Positions 26,341 through 62,554 of a stretch of 64,000 bases of DNA are shown here, one piece after another; within the stretch, counting starts at the first letter, position 1, and each line of letters begins with the position of its first letter. The notes beneath the pieces were generated by a model. The model was given only the letters and a program-made list of their open reading frames with translations, searched no databases and was not told the DNA's origin. The translations under genes were made by a program, and so were the position numbers. Origin of the DNA: Candidatus Bathyarchaeia archaeon (GTDB lineage: Archaea; Thermoproteota; Bathyarchaeia; 40CM-2-53-6); NCBI GenBank assembly GCA_050013255.1, contig JBEKFP010000001.1:448001-512000 (forward strand). The letters run 5' to 3'.

Positions 26341-27384
26341 TCAAATGTAGCCTTGAGATTTCATCGACTCGGCTATGAGAACAGCACAACCCGCAGCACC
26401 ACGAACTGTGTTATGGCCGAGGGCAACATACTTCACGCCATCAAACACAGGATCCTTCCTCACCCGCCCCACAACAACAGACATACCACGCCCTTCATTT
26501 CTATCGAAACGCGGTTGCGGCCGGTCCTGTTCTGACCGCACAATGATCGGTCGTTCTGGGGCCGAAGGTAGTTTCAGCTCTTGTGGTTCTGCGGCAAACG
26601 CAGCCATGCAATCGACGACCTGTTCGGGCGTCGATGGCTTCACGGTTTGGACGAAGACGGCTTCTGTGTGCCCGTCGATTACTGGCACGCGGTGGCAGCT
26701 AGCCGATAAATTGAACTCCGCTGAATGCCCAACATTGCCCAGAATTTTCTGAGTTTCCCGTTGAACTTTTTCCTCTTCATCCTTTATGAATGGGATCACA
26801 TTGTCGATTATGTCCAGCGACGCAACGCCTGGGTAGCCAGCGCCGGATACTGCTTGCATTGAAGACATGACGACATTCTTCAGGCCGAATTTGTCAAAAA
26901 TAGGTTTCAATGAAAGGCTGAGGACAGCCGTCGTACAGTTAGGGTTGGTTACTAGCGCACCGTCCCATCTCCGTTTGTGCCTTTGCTCGTCGATAAGTTT
27001 CAGATGATTGAAGTTCGCTTCGGGGTTCAACAGCGGGACATCGGCCTCCATCCTGTATGCTGAAGCGTTACTTACTACAGCATAGCCAGCCCTTGCGAAA
27101 GCCTCCTCAGTTCCAACCGCTTGATCAGCCGGGAGGGCCGAGAAGACAACCTCCGCATCAACTTCCTTGGGATTAGAAGGCTGGATGGTCAGTTCAGCGA
27201 TTCTTTCCTTCAGTCGAGTTTCCATTTTCCAATTAGCCGCTTCGCCATACCGTAGTCCAGCGCTCCTTTCAGACCCCGTTAGAGTTGTAATCTCGAACCA
27301 TGGGTGATCGTTCAATAGCTGTACGAACCGTTGGCCGACAAGGCCGGTTGCCCCTAGGATTGCCGCTTTCACCCTACAACTCAC
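26341..27384 (-). CDS. asd: Aspartate-semialdehyde dehydrogenase (archaeal type)
   Basis: LGATGLVGQRF, NPNCTT, QAVSGAGYPG, RVPVIDGH, HNTVRGAAG. Confidence 0.96.
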   Translation of the reverse strand: MSCRVKAAILGATGLVGQRFVQLLNDHPWFEITTLTGSERSAGLRYGEAANWKMETRLKERIAELTIQPSNPKEVDAEVVFSALPADQAVGTEEAFARAGYAVVSNASAYRMEADVPLLNPEANFNHLKLIDEQRHKRRWDGALVTNPNCTTAVLSLSLKPIFDKFGLKNVVMSSMQAVSGAGYPGVASLDIIDNVIPFIKDEEEKVQRETQKILGNVGHSAEFNLSASCHRVPVIDGHTEAVFVQTVKPSTPEQVVDCMAAFAAEPQELKLPSAPERPIIVRSEQDRPQPRFDRNEGRGMSVVVGRVRKDPVFDGVKYVALGHNTVRGAAGCAVLIAESMKSQGYI

Positions 27385-28726
27385 CCCTCACAACTTGCCT
27401 CATGAGATTCAGAGCCGTCTCCCTCTCGTCCCATGAGACGAAAACAAGAATGCTCGAGGCCAACGTCAGCATTCCGAAAATGTTGATTCCCTTTTCGCGC
27501 AGGCGCTGCGATATTCTACCTATGATCCCGGGAGTGTCCTCCAGGCCAACCCCTTTGACTTTCAGGAAAGCCAAGTTTGCTTGGACTGCCATCGCGAGGG
27601 TTTCGCTGCAACTAGTGACCAAGTCATGGACGCTTGTGAGTGGAAAAGTCTCAGGAGTCTGGGGGACATAGAATATGACGGAGTCGAAGTTGGCTGAGAG
27701 ACCATCGAGCGCCGAATGTTGTCTTATCTCACGCACTACGTTAGCTAGTATCTCCGGGTTTTCGGAAATGGCTTTGCCGGTTATTGTGATCGCCATCGCG
27801 GGGGTCCTGCTGGCAAAAGTAACCTCGATTTCGCCTGATATTCCGCCTGTGATGATTGTTCCGTCAGCTTCTAGGTCGTCTTTATTGTGATTAATCACTT
27901 TGACTGGTATATCGGGATCTTTGTATTTCAGAGCCTTCCTGTGGATGAATTTGGTTCCTGAACCTGCTAACCCCACGAGGGTTCCAACTTCTATCTGCGC
28001 GAGTTTACGTGCGTTTGGAATGATTTTGGGGTCAGCTGTGAGGATTCCATCAGCGTCAGTTACCAAGACGACCTCGTCAGCTCCGATAGCTTTTGCTATG
28101 ATGAAAGCGGTTGTGTCGCTTCCGCCTCGCCCTATGGTGCTTATCTTGCCCCCAGTTGAGCGGCCTACGAATCCAGCGATTACTGGCACCGTCCCCCAGT
28201 CGAGTAGTGGGACGACGTGCTCACGGACTTTCTGCAAGCACAACTCAAGTATTGGGTTCGCGTTGGAGAAGTCATCATCAGTAATGATCGGCCAATCGGC
28301 GTCGGTCGGATCGAAGTATCTCGCTTCGAGACCTTCGGCTTTAAGCGCGGTGGCAAAGATACGTACGCTGGTTCTTTCGCCCATCGCTAGAACGTCATCT
28401 AGATCCGTCTTATCCGGCGCCTTAGTAGAGTCATGATTGACAAGGCCGATAAGCTGGTCAGTCATCTTCCCCATGGCTGAAACTACTACAACGAGTCGAG
28501 TGCCCTTCGCCGTCTCTCTGGATACTAGCCGGGCAGCTTTCGCAATGCGGTCTTTGTCCGCTAGGCTTGAACCGCCGAACTTGACAACAATTCTGCGTGT
28601 CTTTTGTTTAGATGAAGTACCGGGACTTGCTGTGATTACCGTTTGAAGTGTTCTCGGCGCAGAAATCTTACTTGACAGAGTTTGGGGCGTGGTAGAGCCA
28701 GTAGCCCTCACCGTAAATGTAATCAC
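27374..28726 (-). CDS. lysC: Aspartate kinase with ACT domains (true start unresolved)
   Basis: VVKFGGSS, VVSAMG, GRGGSDTTA, TDADGI.TADP; only GTG 28726/28711 lie upstream of the conserved domain. Confidence 0.92.
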   Translation of the reverse strand: MITFTVRATGSTTPQTLSSKISAPRTLQTVITASPGTSSKQKTRRIVVKFGGSSLADKDRIAKAARLVSRETAKGTRLVVVVSAMGKMTDQLIGLVNHDSTKAPDKTDLDDVLAMGERTSVRIFATALKAEGLEARYFDPTDADWPIITDDDFSNANPILELCLQKVREHVVPLLDWGTVPVIAGFVGRSTGGKISTIGRGGSDTTAFIIAKAIGADEVVLVTDADGILTADPKIIPNARKLAQIEVGTLVGLAGSGTKFIHRKALKYKDPDIPVKVINHNKDDLEADGTIITGGISGEIEVTFASRTPAMAITITGKAISENPEILANVVREIRQHSALDGLSANFDSVIFYVPQTPETFPLTSVHDLVTSCSETLAMAVQANLAFLKVKGVGLEDTPGIIGRISQRLREKGINIFGMLTLASSILVFVSWDERETALNLMRQVVRGEL

Positions 28727-28754
28727 CGTGCATTGTACCAGCCATTTGTTTCAT
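28668..28754 (-). CDS. Putative Tyr/Trp-rich leader peptide of the ask-asd-aro operon, MKQMAGTMHGDYIYGEGYWLYHAPNSVK*
   Basis: GAGGGG SD 6 nt before ATG; 4 Tyr + 1 Trp within codons 12-21; first ORF after a TATA-like box; overlaps ask out of frame. Confidence 0.6.
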   Translation of the reverse strand: MKQMAGTMHGDYIYGEGYWLYHAPNSVK

Positions 28755-55963: not shown

Positions 55964-55987
55964 AACTACAGGCGCCGAGCCTTTCGA

Positions 55988-56003
55988 CGTACATTTTTGT
56001 ACG
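55988..56003. promoter_or_regulatory. Palindromic operator CGTACA-TTTT-TGTACG (TRP-box-like)
   Basis: Perfect 6-4-6 inverted repeat 7 nt upstream of the trp TATA box; each half is one base from TGTACA. Confidence 0.55.
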
Positions 56004-56010
56004 CTGTAGC

Positions 56011-56018
56011 TTTAAATA
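56011..56018 (+). promoter_or_regulatory. TATA box of the trp operon
   Basis: TTTAAATA upstream of trpE. Confidence 0.65.
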
Positions 56019-56037
56019 AAGTACTGATGTCAATTGC

Positions 56038-57474
56038 GTGGCACCGCATTATTCGAGGAAGAAAAAATGGGGTATAGCCTTTGGGCGGCCTGCCCAGCAA
56101 CTAACGACGCAAACAGAACATAGGCTAAAGCTTCAGAAATTCCGGTACTCGACAAACCCCGTACAGACATTTCTTGCACTCAGTCATCAGAGCGAATACT
56201 GTTACCTCCTCGAATCTGCTGAAGGCCCAAGAAAACTTGCGCAATATTCGTTCATTGGCTTCTCTCCTGAAAAAATCGTTGAAGTGAAAGATGGCCGCTA
56301 CACCGAAACGATCCCCGGAAACGCATCCACCACCATTCAGACAAACGATCCTTATCTCGCGCTCCGGAAGACGCTAGCCGAAAACTTCACAACGTATCAT
56401 GGGTTCCGGTTCGTAGGCGGCTTGGTAGGTTACTTTTCCTACGATGCAATTCGCTACCTCGAATCGATACCGACGCAAGCTCTAGATGATTTGAAACTTC
56501 CAGATTTCGAGTTCGGAGTTTACGATGATGGGATCGTATTCGACCACCTGAACGGCCAGGCTTACTATTACTGGTACAAGAATAACAGGTACAAAGAGAT
56601 TGAACGACTTCTCGCACAAAGGATAACGCCAACAAGCCTGGCCGTTGACCAACCGAGAGTAAACCTGAGGCAAGAAGAATTCGAAACAAAGGTGGACGAC
56701 GCGAAGAAGTACATTAGAGCTGGAGACATATTCCAGGTCGTACTTTCAAAACGCCTTGAATTCGCTTTCAAAGGCGACCTCCTCAATTTCTACAAAGCAT
56801 TACGGGAGATCAATCCTTCCCCTTACATGTACTTCCTCAAAATGAGAGACCGGGCTTTGGTTGGCTCAAGCCCCGAGATGCTTGGAAGAGTTGACAAAGG
56901 CCGCGCGGAAACATTTCCGATAGCGGGAACGCGCCCCGTGGGAACAAACAGCGAAGAAGACCGTCGCTTGGCGGACGAGCTATTGAGTGACCCAAAGGAA
57001 CGAGCTGAGCATATTATGCTGATAGATCTTGCCAGGAACGACCTTGGAAAAGTTTGCCAGTTCGGGACGGTTGAAGTTCCAGAGTTTATGGTGGTCCAAA
57101 GGTACAGCCACGTTCAGCACATAGTTTCGCGGGTTTCAGGTCAACTGAAGCCGGGTTGCGACTCGCTTGACACATTCAAAGGAATTTTCCCTGCAGGAAC
57201 AGTGTCTGGAGCGCCGAAAAAAAGGGCGATGGAAATCATTGAAGAGCTGGAACCGAACCGGAGAGGGCCATATGCTGGTGCAGCAGGCTACTTCTCGTAC
57301 AACGGCAACGCTGATTTCGCAATAACCATCCGAACGTTAATCGCCAATGGAAATATGGCCTACATACAAGCCGGAGCAGGCATAGTCGCGGACTCTCAAC
57401 CCACACGAGAATGGTTTGAAACAGAACATAAGGCCGAAGGCCTCATGCACGCCCTGAAAGTCGGTGGGATATGA
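56038..57474 (+). CDS. trpE: Anthranilate synthase component I (true start unresolved)
   Basis: YLLES, GG.VGY.SYD, GDIFQVVLS, NPSPYM, PIAGTR, KERAEH.ML.DLARND, PAGTVSGAPK. Confidence 0.96.
   Translation: MAPHYSRKKKWGIAFGRPAQQLTTQTEHRLKLQKFRYSTNPVQTFLALSHQSEYCYLLESAEGPRKLAQYSFIGFSPEKIVEVKDGRYTETIPGNASTTIQTNDPYLALRKTLAENFTTYHGFRFVGGLVGYFSYDAIRYLESIPTQALDDLKLPDFEFGVYDDGIVFDHLNGQAYYYWYKNNRYKEIERLLAQRITPTSLAVDQPRVNLRQEEFETKVDDAKKYIRAGDIFQVVLSKRLEFAFKGDLLNFYKALREINPSPYMYFLKMRDRALVGSSPEMLGRVDKGRAETFPIAGTRPVGTNSEEDRRLADELLSDPKERAEHIMLIDLARNDLGKVCQFGTVEVPEFMVVQRYSHVQHIVSRVSGQLKPGCDSLDTFKGIFPAGTVSGAPKKRAMEIIEELEPNRRGPYAGAAGYFSYNGNADFAITIRTLIANGNMAYIQAGAGIVADSQPTREWFETEHKAEGLMHALKVGGI
56067..56123 (+). 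CDS. Putative trp leader ORF MGYSLWAACPATNDANRT*
   Basis: GAGGA SD 7 nt before ATG 56067; contains CTT-TGG; trpE frame is +1. Confidence 0.5.
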   Translation: MGYSLWAACPATNDANRT

Positions 57475-58057
57475 AATGAAGGTCTTGATAGTAGATAATT
57501 TCGATTCGTTCGTATACAACCTCGCGCAGTACGTAGGCCAACTAGGAGCCGAACCTATCGTCTGCAGAAATAATCAGATCACCTTGCGGCAAGCAGAAGA
57601 ACTAGGACCCGACCGAATCATCCTATCGCCTGGCCCAGGCAGACCTGATGACCGCAGATATTTCGGCATCTGCTTGGACATAATAAAGAAACTAAGCCCC
57701 GGCGTCCCCACGCTCGGCGTGTGTCTAGGGCATCAAGGTATAGCGTACGCATTCGGCGGTTCAATAGTACCCGCGAAACGGTTGATGCATGGAAAAACTA
57801 GTTTGATTGAACATGAAGGCGGCGGGTTGTTCAAAGCTGTTGAGAACCCGCTCCGGGCAACTAGGTACCATTCCTTAGTTTGCGAAAGAAAGAGCCTTCC
57901 AGAGTGCTTGGAAGAGACCGCAACATCAATCGACGATGGTGAGATCATGGGATTTCAGCATCGAAAGTATCCGATATATGGCGTCCAGTTCCACCCCGAA
58001 TCCATCCTCACTTCTGAGGGCCTAAAGATTATCAGAAATTTCCTGGATGGATCCTGA
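57464..58057 (+). CDS. trpG: Anthranilate synthase component II
   Basis: DNFDSF.YNL, SPGPG, GVCLGHQ, RYHSL, QFHPES; start may be ATG 57476. Confidence 0.96.
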   Translation: MGYEMKVLIVDNFDSFVYNLAQYVGQLGAEPIVCRNNQITLRQAEELGPDRIILSPGPGRPDDRRYFGICLDIIKKLSPGVPTLGVCLGHQGIAYAFGGSIVPAKRLMHGKTSLIEHEGGGLFKAVENPLRATRYHSLVCERKSLPECLEETATSIDDGEIMGFQHRKYPIYGVQFHPESILTSEGLKIIRNFLDGS

Positions 58058-58059
58058 GA

Positions 58060-59121
58060 ATGATCAGGGAAGCTATTCAACTGTTAGTGGACCGAAACGA
58101 CCTGCCCTTCGAACTCGCGCAGCAATCCATGCGAGAGATCATGGCAGGCGAAGCAACACCATCACAAATTGGGGCTTTTCTAACATCGCTTAGGATGAAG
58201 GGAGAAACTATCGACGAGATAACCGCCCTAGCAATGGTAATGCGGGAAAATGCAGTTCGAATCAACCCCCAGGTCAATGGAAGGACTGTTGATACATGCG
58301 GGACTGGAGGGGACCGACTGAAAACATTCAATGTGAGCACTGGTGCGGCGCTCGTCGCGGCCGGCGCAGGAGTGCCCATCGCGAAGCACGGCAACCGTTC
58401 GGTCACAAGCAAATGCGGGAGCGCGGACGTTCTGGAAGCGGTTGGAGTCAACCTAAACGTACCACCATCAGTGGTCCAGAAATCGATAGAGCAAGTAGGA
58501 ATCGGGTTCATGTTTGCGCCTGCATTCCACCCAGCAATGAAAAACGCAATCGCGCCACGTAGGGAAATAGGAATCCGAACAGTCTTCAACATCCTCGGAC
58601 CACTCACAAACCCAGCCAACGCAAACGCCCAAGTGCTAGGAGTTTACGATTCAAGTCTCGTCGAACCCATGGCGAAAGTGCTGCACAAACTCGGTACCGA
58701 AGAAGCCATAGTAGCACACGGCGTGGACGGCTTAGATGAAATATCAACTATAGGCAAAACGAAACTCGCGTGGTTGAAAGATGGAGAGATCACAACCAAG
58801 GAGATTACCCCGAAAGATCTGCACCTCAAACAAGCGCGGCCAAACGAAATCTCCGGTTTTGATGTCGACCAGAGCGCGAGGCTCCTGGTGAACATGCTCA
58901 ACGGGACGGAGGGCAAGCAATCTACACGGCTTGAAATGGTTCTTGCAAACGCCGCAGCTGCCATAGTTATTGGCGGAAAGGTCGACGACTTGGCGTCGGG
59001 TGTAGAGGTCGGACGTGAAGCCATAGCAAGTGGAAGGGCCTACGGCAAGCTCAAGCGACTAATTGAATGCACAAACGGCGATGCGTCAAGACTTGAGAGG
59101 ATAGAATCACAAAATGCCTAA
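58060..59121 (+). CDS. trpD: Anthranilate phosphoribosyltransferase
   Basis: DTCGTGGD, FNVST, KHGNRS, GSADVLE, RTVFNILGPLTNP. Confidence 0.97.
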   Translation: MIREAIQLLVDRNDLPFELAQQSMREIMAGEATPSQIGAFLTSLRMKGETIDEITALAMVMRENAVRINPQVNGRTVDTCGTGGDRLKTFNVSTGAALVAAGAGVPIAKHGNRSVTSKCGSADVLEAVGVNLNVPPSVVQKSIEQVGIGFMFAPAFHPAMKNAIAPRREIGIRTVFNILGPLTNPANANAQVLGVYDSSLVEPMAKVLHKLGTEEAIVAHGVDGLDEISTIGKTKLAWLKDGEITTKEITPKDLHLKQARPNEISGFDVDQSARLLVNMLNGTEGKQSTRLEMVLANAAAAIVIGGKVDDLASGVEVGREAIASGRAYGKLKRLIECTNGDASRLERIESQNA

Positions 59122-59890
59122 TCTGTTAACCAAGTTGATCGAAGATGCCGAAAGAAGGGTTCACACAGGTTACTACGATATCAGAGAAACCGTCGAGCAC
59201 GAACCCGTCAGCCTCAGACACGCACTCAAATCATCTCACGGGAACGCCATAATAGCTGAGATTAAACCGATTTCCCCCGCCCTCGGTCCACTCCGTCCAA
59301 GCATGGATCCAGTTGATGCGGCAATCAAGCTCGCCAAGGGTGGCGCAGTTGCTTTATCCGTCCTGACGGAACCAGACAACTTCGGCGGAAAGATAGAGAA
59401 CCTTCGACGAATTAGACGAAACGTAAACCTACCGCTGCTCATGAAGGACATAATCATTCATAGGTCACAGATTGATGCGGGCAAGAAATCTGGAGCCGAC
59501 TGCATCCTCCTCATCGAATCAGTTTTCTCAGCACATCCCACACCCTCCCTTGAAGGCCTGATTCATGAAGCACACCAAGAACAACTTGAGGTAGTCCTCG
59601 AAGTCCACAGCGAAGACGAATTGCAAAAAGCTCTGGCAAGCGAAGCGGACATTATCGGTGTAAATAACCGAAACCTCGCCACATTAGAAACCGACATCAA
59701 CACAACCGCACGATTAGTAGGCAGGATAAATCAAAGGGCTGGAAAGGTTCTCATAAGCGAGAGCGGTTTCGAGAACGCGAATGACATTCGCAAATTGAAA
59801 ACTGCAACAGTGGATGGATTCCTTATAGGTTCTTCAATTATGCTCTCAGAAAATCTGGAAACTAAAGTTCGTGAGTTCGTGCTCGCATAA
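59114..59890 (+). CDS. trpC: Indole-3-glycerol phosphate synthase
   Basis: IIAEIK..SP, LSVLTE, L.KD, LEVH, GVNNRNL, SESG. Confidence 0.95.
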   Translation: MPNLLTKLIEDAERRVHTGYYDIRETVEHEPVSLRHALKSSHGNAIIAEIKPISPALGPLRPSMDPVDAAIKLAKGGAVALSVLTEPDNFGGKIENLRRIRRNVNLPLLMKDIIIHRSQIDAGKKSGADCILLIESVFSAHPTPSLEGLIHEAHQEQLEVVLEVHSEDELQKALASEADIIGVNNRNLATLETDINTTARLVGRINQRAGKVLISESGFENANDIRKLKTATVDGFLIGSSIMLSENLETKVREFVLA

Positions 59891-59901
59891 GGAAATTTGC
59901 T

Positions 59902-60546
59902 ATGCGAGTCAAAATTTGTGGTTTAATGCGACCGGAGGATGTGCGGACTGCCTTTGACAGCGGCGCAGATGCTCTTGGTTTCGTAGTATCAAGCCCCTCT
60001 TCGCCAAGAAACCTGTCGCTCAACGCCGCACATAAATTAATGAAAAACGTTCCAGTCTTCGCAACGAAAGTGACGGTTACCTCCGCGAATGACCCGAGAA
60101 CTGTCGCCAAGATCTGTTCCAAGCTAAAGCCCGATACACTGCAACTTCATCGATACCGACAACAACTAGTAAGATTGATCAGGCGCAAACATCCTGAAAC
60201 TAAGCTTATCCTAGCCAAGGCTATCAGTGACCGTTCATCTCTGGGACTAGCAAGTTGGACATCAAGAGAATCGGACGCGGTTTTGGCCGATTCACCAAGC
60301 CCTAGCGGGATGGGCGGTACAGGCCGAACTCATGACTGGTACCTTACAGCCGCGCTTCGAGATAGAATATACCCACACCCACTAATCCTAGCTGGAGGAC
60401 TAACACCAATCAACGTTCAACAGGCCATCAGGAAAGTCAGGCCGTTCGCCGTCGATGTCTCAAGCGGCGTCGAAAAGACGATCGGAGTGAAAGACCGCAA
60501 GAAGATTCGTGACTTCATCAAGAAAGCAAAGGAGAGCGTATATTGA
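59902..60546 (+). CDS. trpF: Phosphoribosylanthranilate isomerase
   Basis: VKICG, SPR, QLH, GGTG...DW, LAGGL, DVSSGVE. Confidence 0.95.
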
Positions 60547-61745
60547 TCCATCAACATTCCAAACCTGCGGATGGCAAATTCGGGAAATATGGTGGCCGTT
60601 TCGTCCCGGAAACTCTGATGAGTGCTCTTATCGAACTGGAAGAAGAATACACACGGCTAAAGAATGACCCTGAATTCAAGTCCCAGCTTGACTATCTTCT
60701 AAGAGAATTCGCAGGCCGACCAACGCCCCTGTACTATGCTGCGAACTTAACACGAAAGGCGGGAGGCGCGAAGATCTACATAAAACGTGAAGACTTGGCA
60801 CATGGTGGAGCACACAAGATCAACAATACGATTGGGCAGGCGCTCCTCGCGAAAGGAATGGGCAAGGAGCGAGTCATAGCCGAAACTGGGGCGGGTCAAC
60901 ATGGAGTCGCAAGCGCAATCGCTTGTGCCGCGCTAGGCCTGAAGTGCGAAGTTTACATGGGCTCAGAGGATGTGGAAAGGCAGAAGCTGAACGTTTTCCG
61001 CATGAACCTTCTAGGAACAAAGGTTCATACTGTACATTCAGGGTCGAAGACGCTCAAGGATGCGATAAATGAGGCCTTTCGAGACTGGGTAACAAACGTT
61101 GGGAACACCTACTATTTACTGGGCTCAGTCGTAGGCCCCCACCCGTACCCGACTTTGGTTAGGGATTTTCAAAGCGTCATCGGACTCGAAATTAAAGAGC
61201 AGATCCTGCGGAAAGAAGGACGCCTCCCAGATGCGATAGTTGCATGCGTAGGAGGAGGAAGCAACTCGATGGGAGCGTTCTACCCATTCATCGCTGACGC
61301 GCAAGTAGGCTTGTATGGTGTGGAAGCAGGCGGCCTAGGCTTAGCGTCTGGAAAACATGCAGCGACATTGTGCGCTGGACAAGAAGGCGTCTTTCATGGA
61401 ATGCTCACTTACATACTCCAAGATGAAGACGGCCAAATAGAATCAACCCACAGCATCTCCGCCGGCCTCGACTATCCTGGAGTTGGCCCAGAACACGCGT
61501 ACCTTAAGGCTACTGGCCGGGCTCAGTACACTTCGGCAACGGATCAACAGGCCCTAGAAGCCTTCATGGAGTTAAGCAGACTTGAGGGCATTATACCGGC
61601 CCTCGAATCTGCACACGCAGTACATTATGCAGTCATTCTAGCCTCTAAGATGCGCCGAGATCAACTCGTGGTGATTAACCTGTCAGGACGCGGGGACAAG
61701 GACGTCAATGTCGTCGCCAAGAGTTTGGGCGTAAAGATACAATGA
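60543..61745 (+). CDS. trpB: Tryptophan synthase beta chain (TrpB1 type)
   Basis: [51 protein letters not shown]. Confidence 0.98.
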
Positions 61746-62554
61746 GAATCTCAGAATCATTCGCTCAACTGAAGAAGAAGGGCGAAGGTGCGCTCATTGC
61801 GTACCTGACAGTGGGTTACCCGACCCCGAAACAGACTCCGCGCCTAATAGGAGCCATGATCGAAGGCGGAGCGGACATTATCGAACTCGGCATCCCGTTT
61901 TCGGACCCGATTGCGGATGGGCCTACGATTCAAAACGCTGTCATGCGTTCCTTGGCGAGCGGAACTAAGCCACTCGATGCTCTCGAGATAGCTCAAGCAG
62001 TTCATGAGAAACATGACACGCCTCTAGTTCTAATGACTTACTTCAATCCTATCTACAGGGTAGGATTACGGAAATTCCTAAGCCTCGCCAAGAATTCCGG
62101 GATCTCTGGAATAGTCGTCCCTGACCTTCCTGTAGAAGAATCGAAAGATTACAAGAAGGAATGCGTTGCAACCAACATCGACACCATCTTCTTGGCTTCG
62201 CCTTCAACTCATCCGGACAGGCTTAAACAAATTCTGGCGCAAACTTCTGGTTACCTCTACCTGATTTCATTATACGGCGTCACAGGTGTCCGGTCAGCAG
62301 TCTCTGAGTCGGCGCTGGCTCTAATCAAGGAATACCGGGCCATTGTAGGAGGGGCCATACCCCTCGCCGTAGGATTCGGAATTTCCAAACCTGACCACGT
62401 AAAAGAAATGATCCACGCGGGAGCAGATGGAGCAATAGTGGGAAGCGCATTCGTGAAAATAATTGGCGAAAATTCGCGGAACATGCCTCGCTCCCTCAAG
62501 AAATTGGAAGGCCTCGTCAGGGCCATGAAGAAAGCAACAATAAAGACCAAATGA
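61742..62554 (+). CDS. trpA: Tryptophan synthase alpha chain
   Basis: [42 protein letters not shown]. Confidence 0.97.

Follow-up and report, generated by a model that had tools for sequence, protein, structure and literature searches.

The trpE gene heading the tryptophan operon in the 64,000-nucleotide (nt) stretch of Candidatus Bathyarchaeia archaeon DNA analyzed here (contig JBEKFP010000001.1, positions 448,001 to 512,000; hereafter the window, in whose coordinates positions are given) is overlapped at its 5′ end by a short leader open reading frame (ORF), whose ATG start follows a Shine-Dalgarno (SD) sequence and lies one base behind the TrpE frame. We propose, with a probability of roughly 0.7 and on the strength of comparative sequence analysis, that TrpE is made by a tryptophan-responsive +1 ribosomal slip at an NUU_UGG site in this leader. 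A slip at CTT while TGG occupies the A site, resembling that of release factor 2 (RF2), had been suggested in a preliminary description of the window, and it is now supported by five lines of evidence: conservation of the layout across 168 loci, an internal SD-like element, a constraint on the TTT of the slip site, two natural frame-restored alleles, and a sister cassette with Phe and Tyr codons on a second operon. The layout and its conservation, the nucleotide constraints, the complementarity to the 16S rRNA tail, and the place where the two frames join in the in-frame alleles were observed directly in the genomes compared. From these observations we infer that ribosomes would slip at this site, and would do so more often when tryptophan is short.

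In the proposed mechanism, a ribosome would initiate at ATG 56067, which has a good SD, and would synthesize Met-Gly-Tyr-Ser-Leu, bringing CUU into the P site and UGG, the sole Trp codon, into the A site. With ample charged tRNA-Trp, UGG would be decoded and translation would terminate at 56121 after 18 codons, yielding no TrpE. With charged tRNA-Trp scarce, the A site would stand empty, and pairing of GGGGUAU with the 3′ tail of 16S rRNA would assist a slip in which peptidyl-tRNA-Leu moves +1 from CUU to UUU, Gly-tRNA decodes GGG, and the TrpE frame is entered; through the overlapping start of trpG, translation would probably be carried on into the remaining operon. ATG 56067-69 is in this way the proposed initiation codon of TrpE. 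The trans-frame N terminus is predicted to be MGYSL-GRPAQQLTTQTEHR, and the predicted frameshift product (MGYSL followed by GRPAQQ...) has 468 amino acids.

Conservation of the trpE 5′ end

We sampled trpE 5′ ends from the genus and order of the window, from other orders of the class, from one large genus in depth, and from other classes of the phylum. This comparison of orthologous 5′ ends, which the preliminary description had proposed, yielded an out-of-frame start followed by NUU-UGG in 168 of 189 parsable loci (166 of the 168 being unique), with the start codon one base behind the TrpE frame in both Bathyarchaeia and ammonia-oxidizing archaea. Recurrence of the layout is far beyond chance. 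Across the 166 unique loci, the out-of-frame start codon is ATG in 153, TTG in 7, and GTG in 6; usually four codons lie between the start and the NUU-UGG region (five in 5 loci, six in 2), with TGG at codon 6 (159 loci), codon 7 (5 loci), or codon 8 (2 loci). The codon that would occupy the P site is always NUU (166/166; CTT 94, GTT 45, ATT 17, and TTT 10), and the +1-frame codon after TTT is always GGN, with variation in the third G. Leaders range from 6 to 51 codons in length and contain exactly one Trp codon in 164 of the 168 motif-bearing loci and two in the other four; in many loci, a TGA overlaps the leader ATG. Two features that characterize the RF2 gene, prfB, are found here: a short ORF0 combined with a long +1-frame ORF1 that has no independent start, and a slippery P-site codon followed by U (CUU then U in prfB, NUU_U here).

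The conserved sequence is limited to an island of 20 nt, A-U-G-R-G-G-N-A-U-M-R-Y-N-U-U-U-G-G-N-C. Upstream of it only the SD is conserved (purine-rich positions -13 to -9), and from position 21 onward the sequence is near-random and A/C-rich. The codon preceding the slip codon (56076-56078), which would sit in the E site at the moment of slipping, is almost always NRY (CGC, CGT, AGC, AGT, TGC, CAT, or CAC) and may affect release of the E-site tRNA, as in prfB.

Since the genome is metagenome assembled and a single-base frame offset is typical of errors in such genomes, the offset might mark a pseudogene or a misassembly. However, the identical offset occurs in 166 unique loci, closed genomes among them, and the TrpE frame is whole and conserved over all of its 463 codons. 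Between 55950 and 56300, zero indels occur in contigs of four further DNA runs; matching DNA occurs in peat and wetland metagenomes, and a look for RNA runs containing the locus returned none. Two co-occurring strains have 17 listed differences in 55982-56265 (e.g., at 56048, 56049, 56056, and 56105), and no letter differs between them from 56057 to 56104. Because the independent contigs are without indels and the strains are identical across the leader start and slip site, the single-base assembly error about which the preliminary description had worried is ruled out, and we give a pseudogene or assembly artifact next to no probability.

The coordinates reported earlier for the TATA box, GAGGA, leader, CTT, TGG, and TAG were reproduced base for base (Table 1), as was the observation that GTG 56038 is the only start in the TrpE frame before the conserved YLLES motif, the next being GTG 56284, already inside the domain. 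No frameshift would be needed if TrpE started in its own frame, either at a leaderless GTG 56038 or at a near-cognate AUA at 56074, with the leader as a separate small ORF that regulates by occlusion or coupling. GTG 56038 does lie near the expected 5′ end of the transcript: it is 27 nt 3′ of the first T of the TATA box, and known archaeal promoter geometry would put the transcription start at about 56038-56042. This GTG, however, is limited to the window and its nearest relative (L001 and L002), only two loci of the order, the next relatives having a stop or no start codon, and 109 of the 168 motif-bearing loci are devoid of ATG, GTG, and TTG in the TrpE frame from its last stop to TTT. As for a near-cognate start, the Ile position is ATA, ATC, ATT, or ATG in most loci, but GTA and ACT are also seen there, and the SD is correctly spaced for ATG 56067 and not for 56074. 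Ammonia oxidizers have a TrpE-frame GTG at +5. A ribosome stalled at UGG would cover a near-cognate start and thereby give regulation the wrong sign, and the frame-restored alleles described below fuse the leader to TrpE. We therefore consider initiation in the TrpE frame improbable, and the leaderless GTG 56038, which had been offered as the alternative to a slip, fails as a general start.

Complementarity of the leader to the 16S rRNA tail

The 16S rRNA 3′ tail, GGAUCACCUCCU, was read from three genomes of the same genus. Duplex energy against this tail, calculated in 10-nt windows and averaged over 116 loci, has two minima, the first at the initiation SD (-6.3 kcal/mol at positions -16 to -5) and the second at island positions 2 to 12 (-7.7 kcal/mol), against a background of about -1.9 kcal/mol. 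Positions 3 to 10 after the start equal the true SD in the strength of their match to the tail, a parallel with prfB. The R at island position 4 fits either A-U or G·U pairing with CCUC. In lineages in which GU replaces GG, the leader reads GUGAUC or GGUGG, both of which pair with an adjacent part of the tail, and where the start codon is displaced by one codon or two, the SD-like element still stands beside NUU. We attribute the conserved GG and AU of the island to pairing with the 16S rRNA 3′ tail.

A 5-bp hairpin, UGGGC-GGCCU-GCCCA, is indeed present at 56082-96, as the preliminary description had noted, but a conserved role for it did not hold up: it is confined to the genus, the sequence downstream is near-random across loci, and the region around it folds no better than shuffles (z = -1.08). 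We therefore rejected this hairpin as a conserved stimulator. The 32 nt downstream are A/C-rich (66%), and only 37% of loci fold at -5 kcal/mol or better. The region matched no Rfam family, and we found no terminator-like site on the plus strand and no conserved hairpins or U-tract of the kind that defines trpL-type attenuation.

Ammonia-oxidizing archaea

The same layout is found in closed genomes carrying archaeal amoA, a gene carried by families f37 and f76 (amoA-bearing loci L340-L348, L354-L356, L338-L339, L039, and L043). In 14 of these 16 loci, ATG GGT GRN NNN NTT TGG begins 21 to 22 nt past a TATA-like box, and no SD lies upstream, unlike at Bathyarchaeia starts. From archaeal promoter geometry, the trp mRNA of ammonia oxidizers is probably leaderless, beginning at the out-of-frame AUG. 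If so, the zero-frame AUG would be the only plausible initiation codon in these organisms, and the internal SD-like element would not be an initiation signal. In most Bathyarchaeia loci, a TATA-like box lies 40 to 60 nt 5′ of the leader start.

Position of the proposed frame change

The TTT of the slip site is never TTC in any locus (i.e., the T at 56082 is never C). By comparison, TTC outnumbers TTT by 314 to 190 in 21 full-length trpE genes of the order, and both codons occur in each of the six other invariant Phe columns of TrpE that we tested. Because TTT alone is found here while the other columns are mixed, we conclude that the T at 56082 is held at the nucleotide level.

Two natural frame-restored alleles in one genus indicate where the frames meet. 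The allele of genome G213 (locus L212) reads ATG AGG AAC CAC CTT GAC..., and that of G477 (locus L241) reads ATG GGG AAT CGC CTT TGC AGC...; from the leader ATG, uninterrupted ORFs extend for 465 and 471 codons, respectively. Compared with sister genomes, both alleles keep zero-frame codons 2 to 5 and are missing one base inside TTTGG, and the zero-frame TGG is lost in both. As these restoring deletions fall inside TTTGG, we place the shift at NUU_UGG. Further changes in G213 (AAT to AAC and GGC to GAC) make its allele look evolved. Judged by their reading frames, the two are natural, putatively constitutive alleles.

We asked whether the shift might instead take place just after ATG 56067 (for example at RGG_N, codon 2), as a constitutive or misplaced recoding event that would yield M-G-I-A-F-G... 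and leave the Trp codon a by-product of a conserved Phe-Gly. The island varies at positions 7, 10, 13, and 19, each a third codon position in the TrpE frame, as such a shift would have it, and G-I-x-F-G is better conserved than the zero-frame peptide. An obligatory early shift, however, would throw both G213 and G477 out of frame, given that they keep zero-frame codons 2 to 5, which argues against it, and selection for Phe would not account for TTT that is never TTC when six other invariant Phe columns mix the two. Furthermore, in lineages with an ordinary in-frame start the whole island is missing and there is no GIAFG motif; GIAFG is therefore not a feature of the TrpE protein. The conserved GG and AU are explained by 16S rRNA pairing, and the GUGAUC and GGUGG variants keep that pairing and not the peptide. 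Altogether, we regard an early shift as unlikely.

Several points weigh against the tryptophan-responsive slip at NUU_UGG that we prefer. Variation between ATG and TTT falls mostly at TrpE-frame third positions, a pattern that resembles protein-level selection and that 16S rRNA pairing explains except at positions 10 to 12 (M-R-Y). Since TTTGG was the search anchor, the finding of TGG in every one of the 168 motif-bearing loci is in part built into the search, and the informative contrast is for this reason provided by the motif-less loci, which have either an ordinary in-frame start upstream (families f22, f27, f40, f50, and others) or a frame-restored allele. The G477 allele could be an assembly error, as only one G separates it from its sister and its metagenome-assembled genome is 66% complete. 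The SD-like element lies 2 to 6 nt from the slip codon, depending on register, the 3-nt spacing of prfB being one possibility within that range. Finally, the proposed dependence on tryptophan is deduced from the identity of the A-site codon alone.

One-base loss within TTTGGG could also occur at the RNA level, by polymerase slippage or editing in some transcripts, and the two in-frame alleles show that such a loss yields an intact gene. Known polymerase slippage tracts consist of 7 or more identical bases, far above the run of T3G2-3 present here, in which the third G varies (GGN). Correction of the RNA would, moreover, leave unexplained the SD-like element, the constant distance from the start, and the Phe/Tyr counterparts described below, and we consider it very improbable. 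Two other readings of the site were rejected: initiation at the TTG inside TTTGG, since this TTG belongs to the third frame, and decoding of UGGN as a quadruplet by tRNA-Trp, which would not account for the invariant UUU and would give regulation the wrong sign.

A sister cassette on the chorismate operon

A second leader in the window, on the minus strand, stands ahead of an aspartokinase gene in the +1 frame that heads a nine-gene operon (Table 1). Following aspartokinase, this operon encodes asd, a DeoC-type aldolase, DHQ synthase II, dehydroquinase, shikimate dehydrogenase, a GHMP kinase, EPSP synthase, and chorismate synthase. Leaders at 25 of 30 loci of the order contain one or two 15-nt units, and most have both: a Phe unit, GGT GAY NNN NTT TTC, and a Tyr unit, GGT GRY NNN NTT TAY, with the kinase in the +1 frame. 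Against the 16S rRNA tail, Tyr units mostly have duplex energies between -9 and -12 kcal/mol, and Phe units between -6 and -12 kcal/mol. In one family, the leader begins ATG GGT GAC NNN CTT TTC and thus matches the trpE cassette except that a Phe codon takes the place of UGG. The +1 frame of the sister leader contains a GTG, a by-product of GGTGAY, and sometimes an ATG; judging from its sequence, the leader is probably a frameshift sensor, an ordinary in-frame GTG or ATG start being possible there as well. The aspartokinase gene of family f17 has an ordinary ATG start and no cassette, and it was set aside.

The codon found in the proposed A site matches the pathway controlled, being Trp on the trp operon and Phe or Tyr on the operon for the common aromatic pathway, which argues that the A-site codon is the sensor. 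This match, which likewise speaks against a shift placed early in the trpE leader, is the best argument available for a sensing role of the codon. More broadly, the trpE site may be one instance of a modular archaeal sensor cassette of about 15 nt, in which an SD-like stretch is followed by a short spacer, by NUU, and by a codon for the end product that starts with U; through a +1 frameshift, it would report how far a chosen tRNA is charged. In this generalization, UGG would serve on trp operons, and UUC and UAY in tandem would form an OR gate on the chorismate operon, in Bathyarchaeia and ammonia oxidizers alike, as an archaeal counterpart of bacterial attenuation; we rate it as somewhat better than an even bet. 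Genome-wide scans, both at fixed distance and for a general SD-like element with NUU_U, returned only trpE and the aspartokinase leader and no third convincing cassette. Other scan candidates (C1:788246, C1:387480, C1:689136, and four others) were antisense frames or genes with ordinary starts and were rejected.

The trp locus

TrpE was assigned as anthranilate synthase component I from its two Pfam domains, Anth_synt_I_N (PF04715, 2.9e-34) and Chorismate_bind (PF00425, 2.6e-102), together with its position at the head of a trpEGDCFBA operon. The trpG gene starts with GTG and shares its first 11 nt (57464-57474) with the end of trpE, and trpD, trpC, trpB, and trpA likewise abut or overlap neighboring genes. 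Because the genes overlap or abut, control of trpE translation could spread downstream by coupling.

Alignment of TrpE with bacterial and methanogen TrpEs begins only at about residue 29 of the +1 frame. The N-terminal extension encoded 3′ of the island (56085-56160) is poorly conserved, and bacterial and methanogen TrpEs lack these approximately 28 residues; the DNA encoding it is 66% A+C and poor in G across loci, as would fit an unstructured linker.

Three GTAC boxes surround the TATA box in the window. At positions -80 to -61 from the start codon, immediately 5′ of the TATA box, GTAC occurs in 101 of 115 loci, compared to 27 of 115 in an intragenic control stretch. These boxes are a candidate operator for a TrpY-like transcriptional repressor, which would constitute a second, separate layer of control.

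The assembly from which the window comes (genome G000) is 100% complete by score, yet its 16S rRNA gene was not found. ARAGORN made approximately 30 tRNA calls on G000, mostly intron-bearing and none for tRNA-Trp, a set that is incomplete and unreliable.

Table 1. Features of the trpE and aspartokinase leaders and their operons in the 64,000-nt window
Feature	Position	Strand	Remarks
GTAC boxes (three)	55989-92, 55999-56002, 56021-24		Around the TATA box; candidate operator
TATA box, archaeal, TTTAAATA	56011-56018	+	Read from sequence
GTG, sole canonical start codon in TrpE frame before YLLES	56038-56040	+	Rejected as general start
Shine-Dalgarno GAGGA	56055-56059	+	7 nt ahead of leader ATG
Zero-frame leader ORF, MGYSLWAACPATNDANRT	56067-56123	+	18 codons; ATG 56067-69, GGG, TAT, AGC, CTT 56079-81, TGG 56082-84; stop TAG 56121-23
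Internal SD-like element GGGGUAU	56069-56075	+	Complementary to 16S rRNA 3′ tail; proposed frameshift stimulator
CTT, slip codon	56079-56081	+	tRNA-Leu re-pairing on TTT 56080-82 proposed
TGG, zero-frame Trp codon	56082-56084	+	Proposed sensor (hungry A-site codon)
TrpE body, +1 frame relative to leader	56083-57474	+	463 codons from GGG 56083, then stop
trpG, trpD, trpC, trpF, trpB, trpA	57464-62554	+	3′ of trpE
Sister leader, MKQMAGTMHGDYIYGEGYWLYHAPNSVK	28668-28754	-	ATG 28754-52 to TAA 28670-68
GGT GAT TAC ATT TAC in sister leader	28727-13	-	SD-like stretch, 3-nt spacer, AUU, Tyr codon
Aspartokinase gene, +1 frame to sister leader	27374-28612	-	Heads nine-gene operon reaching 19674

Relation to known systems and implications

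Bacterial prfB, which encodes RF2, is autoregulated by a +1 programmed frameshift at AGG GGG UAU CUU UGA C (PMC5009743). Like prfB, the trpE site combines a brief zero-frame ORF, a main coding body shifted to the +1 frame, a CUU codon that precedes U and would let the P-site tRNA re-pair on UUU, and a GGG-UAU sequence; as in prfB, too, its A-site codon would be decoded slowly, at a rate reflecting how much of the regulated product is present. An SD-like stretch complementary to the 16S rRNA 3′ tail also lies 2 to 6 nt 5′ of the trpE slip codon, depending on register. Conversely, the A-site codon of trpE is the sense codon UGG and not the stop UGA, its product is anthranilate synthase and not a decoding factor, and the cassette would sense charged tRNA-Trp rather than the gene's own protein. 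The trpE site also lies five codons from the start, has one extra codon between GGG-UAU and CUU, and belongs to an archaeon, without RF2. Because its A-site codon is not a stop and its product is not a decoding factor, we do not consider the trpE cassette a member of the prfB family.

Hungry-codon frameshifting was reportedly described by Gallant and Lindsley. With this process and with the yeast Ty1 +1 site CUU_AGG_C (PMC8211752, PMC5009743), the trpE cassette would share a P-site tRNA-Leu that slips +1 from CUU when shortage of an aminoacyl-tRNA leaves the A site empty. However, those cases are laboratory starvation artifacts or a retrotransposon device keyed to a rare tRNA, and neither serves as a conserved control on the operon that makes the sensed amino acid. 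Antizyme is a further +1 frameshift, one that senses polyamines (PMC5009743), and here too the efficiency of the shift is set by a metabolite of the controlled pathway; it differs in sensing polyamines at a stop codon, in eukaryotes, and in its opposite logic, with high metabolite leading to more shifting. In function, a parallel may be drawn to trpL transcription attenuation of bacterial trp operons, in which, as proposed here, a ribosome reading a short leader with codons for the end product reports tRNA-Trp charging and sets operon expression. Unlike in trpL, the output at trpE would be a change of reading frame rather than terminator/antiterminator folding, the leader has one Trp codon and not two and is without conserved hairpins or a U-tract, and it overlaps a structural gene that has no start of its own.

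Full-text literature searches, PMC5009743 (2016) and PMC8211752 included, returned no published description of such a trpE device. A 2021 review of archaeal recoding reports a single instance of -1 programmed frameshifting in Archaea and mentions none that involves tryptophan or trpE (PMC8211752). What the present analysis adds are the frame-restored alleles, a control based on codon usage, measured complementarity to 16S rRNA, the probably leaderless version in ammonia oxidizers, and the occurrence of Trp and Tyr cassettes in one window.

To our knowledge, archaea lack the coupled terminator-based attenuation of bacteria, and little has been described of how they match amino acid synthesis to tRNA charging. 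If the proposed slip is real, the trpE leader would be a very compact sensor, of about 20 nt and requiring no protein factor, and a sense-codon analogue of the RF2 switch. Gene callers would then mis-annotate trpE in hundreds of archaeal genomes, with a wrong start, as a truncation, or as a pseudogene, and metabolic reconstructions of these organisms may in turn score tryptophan synthesis as broken.

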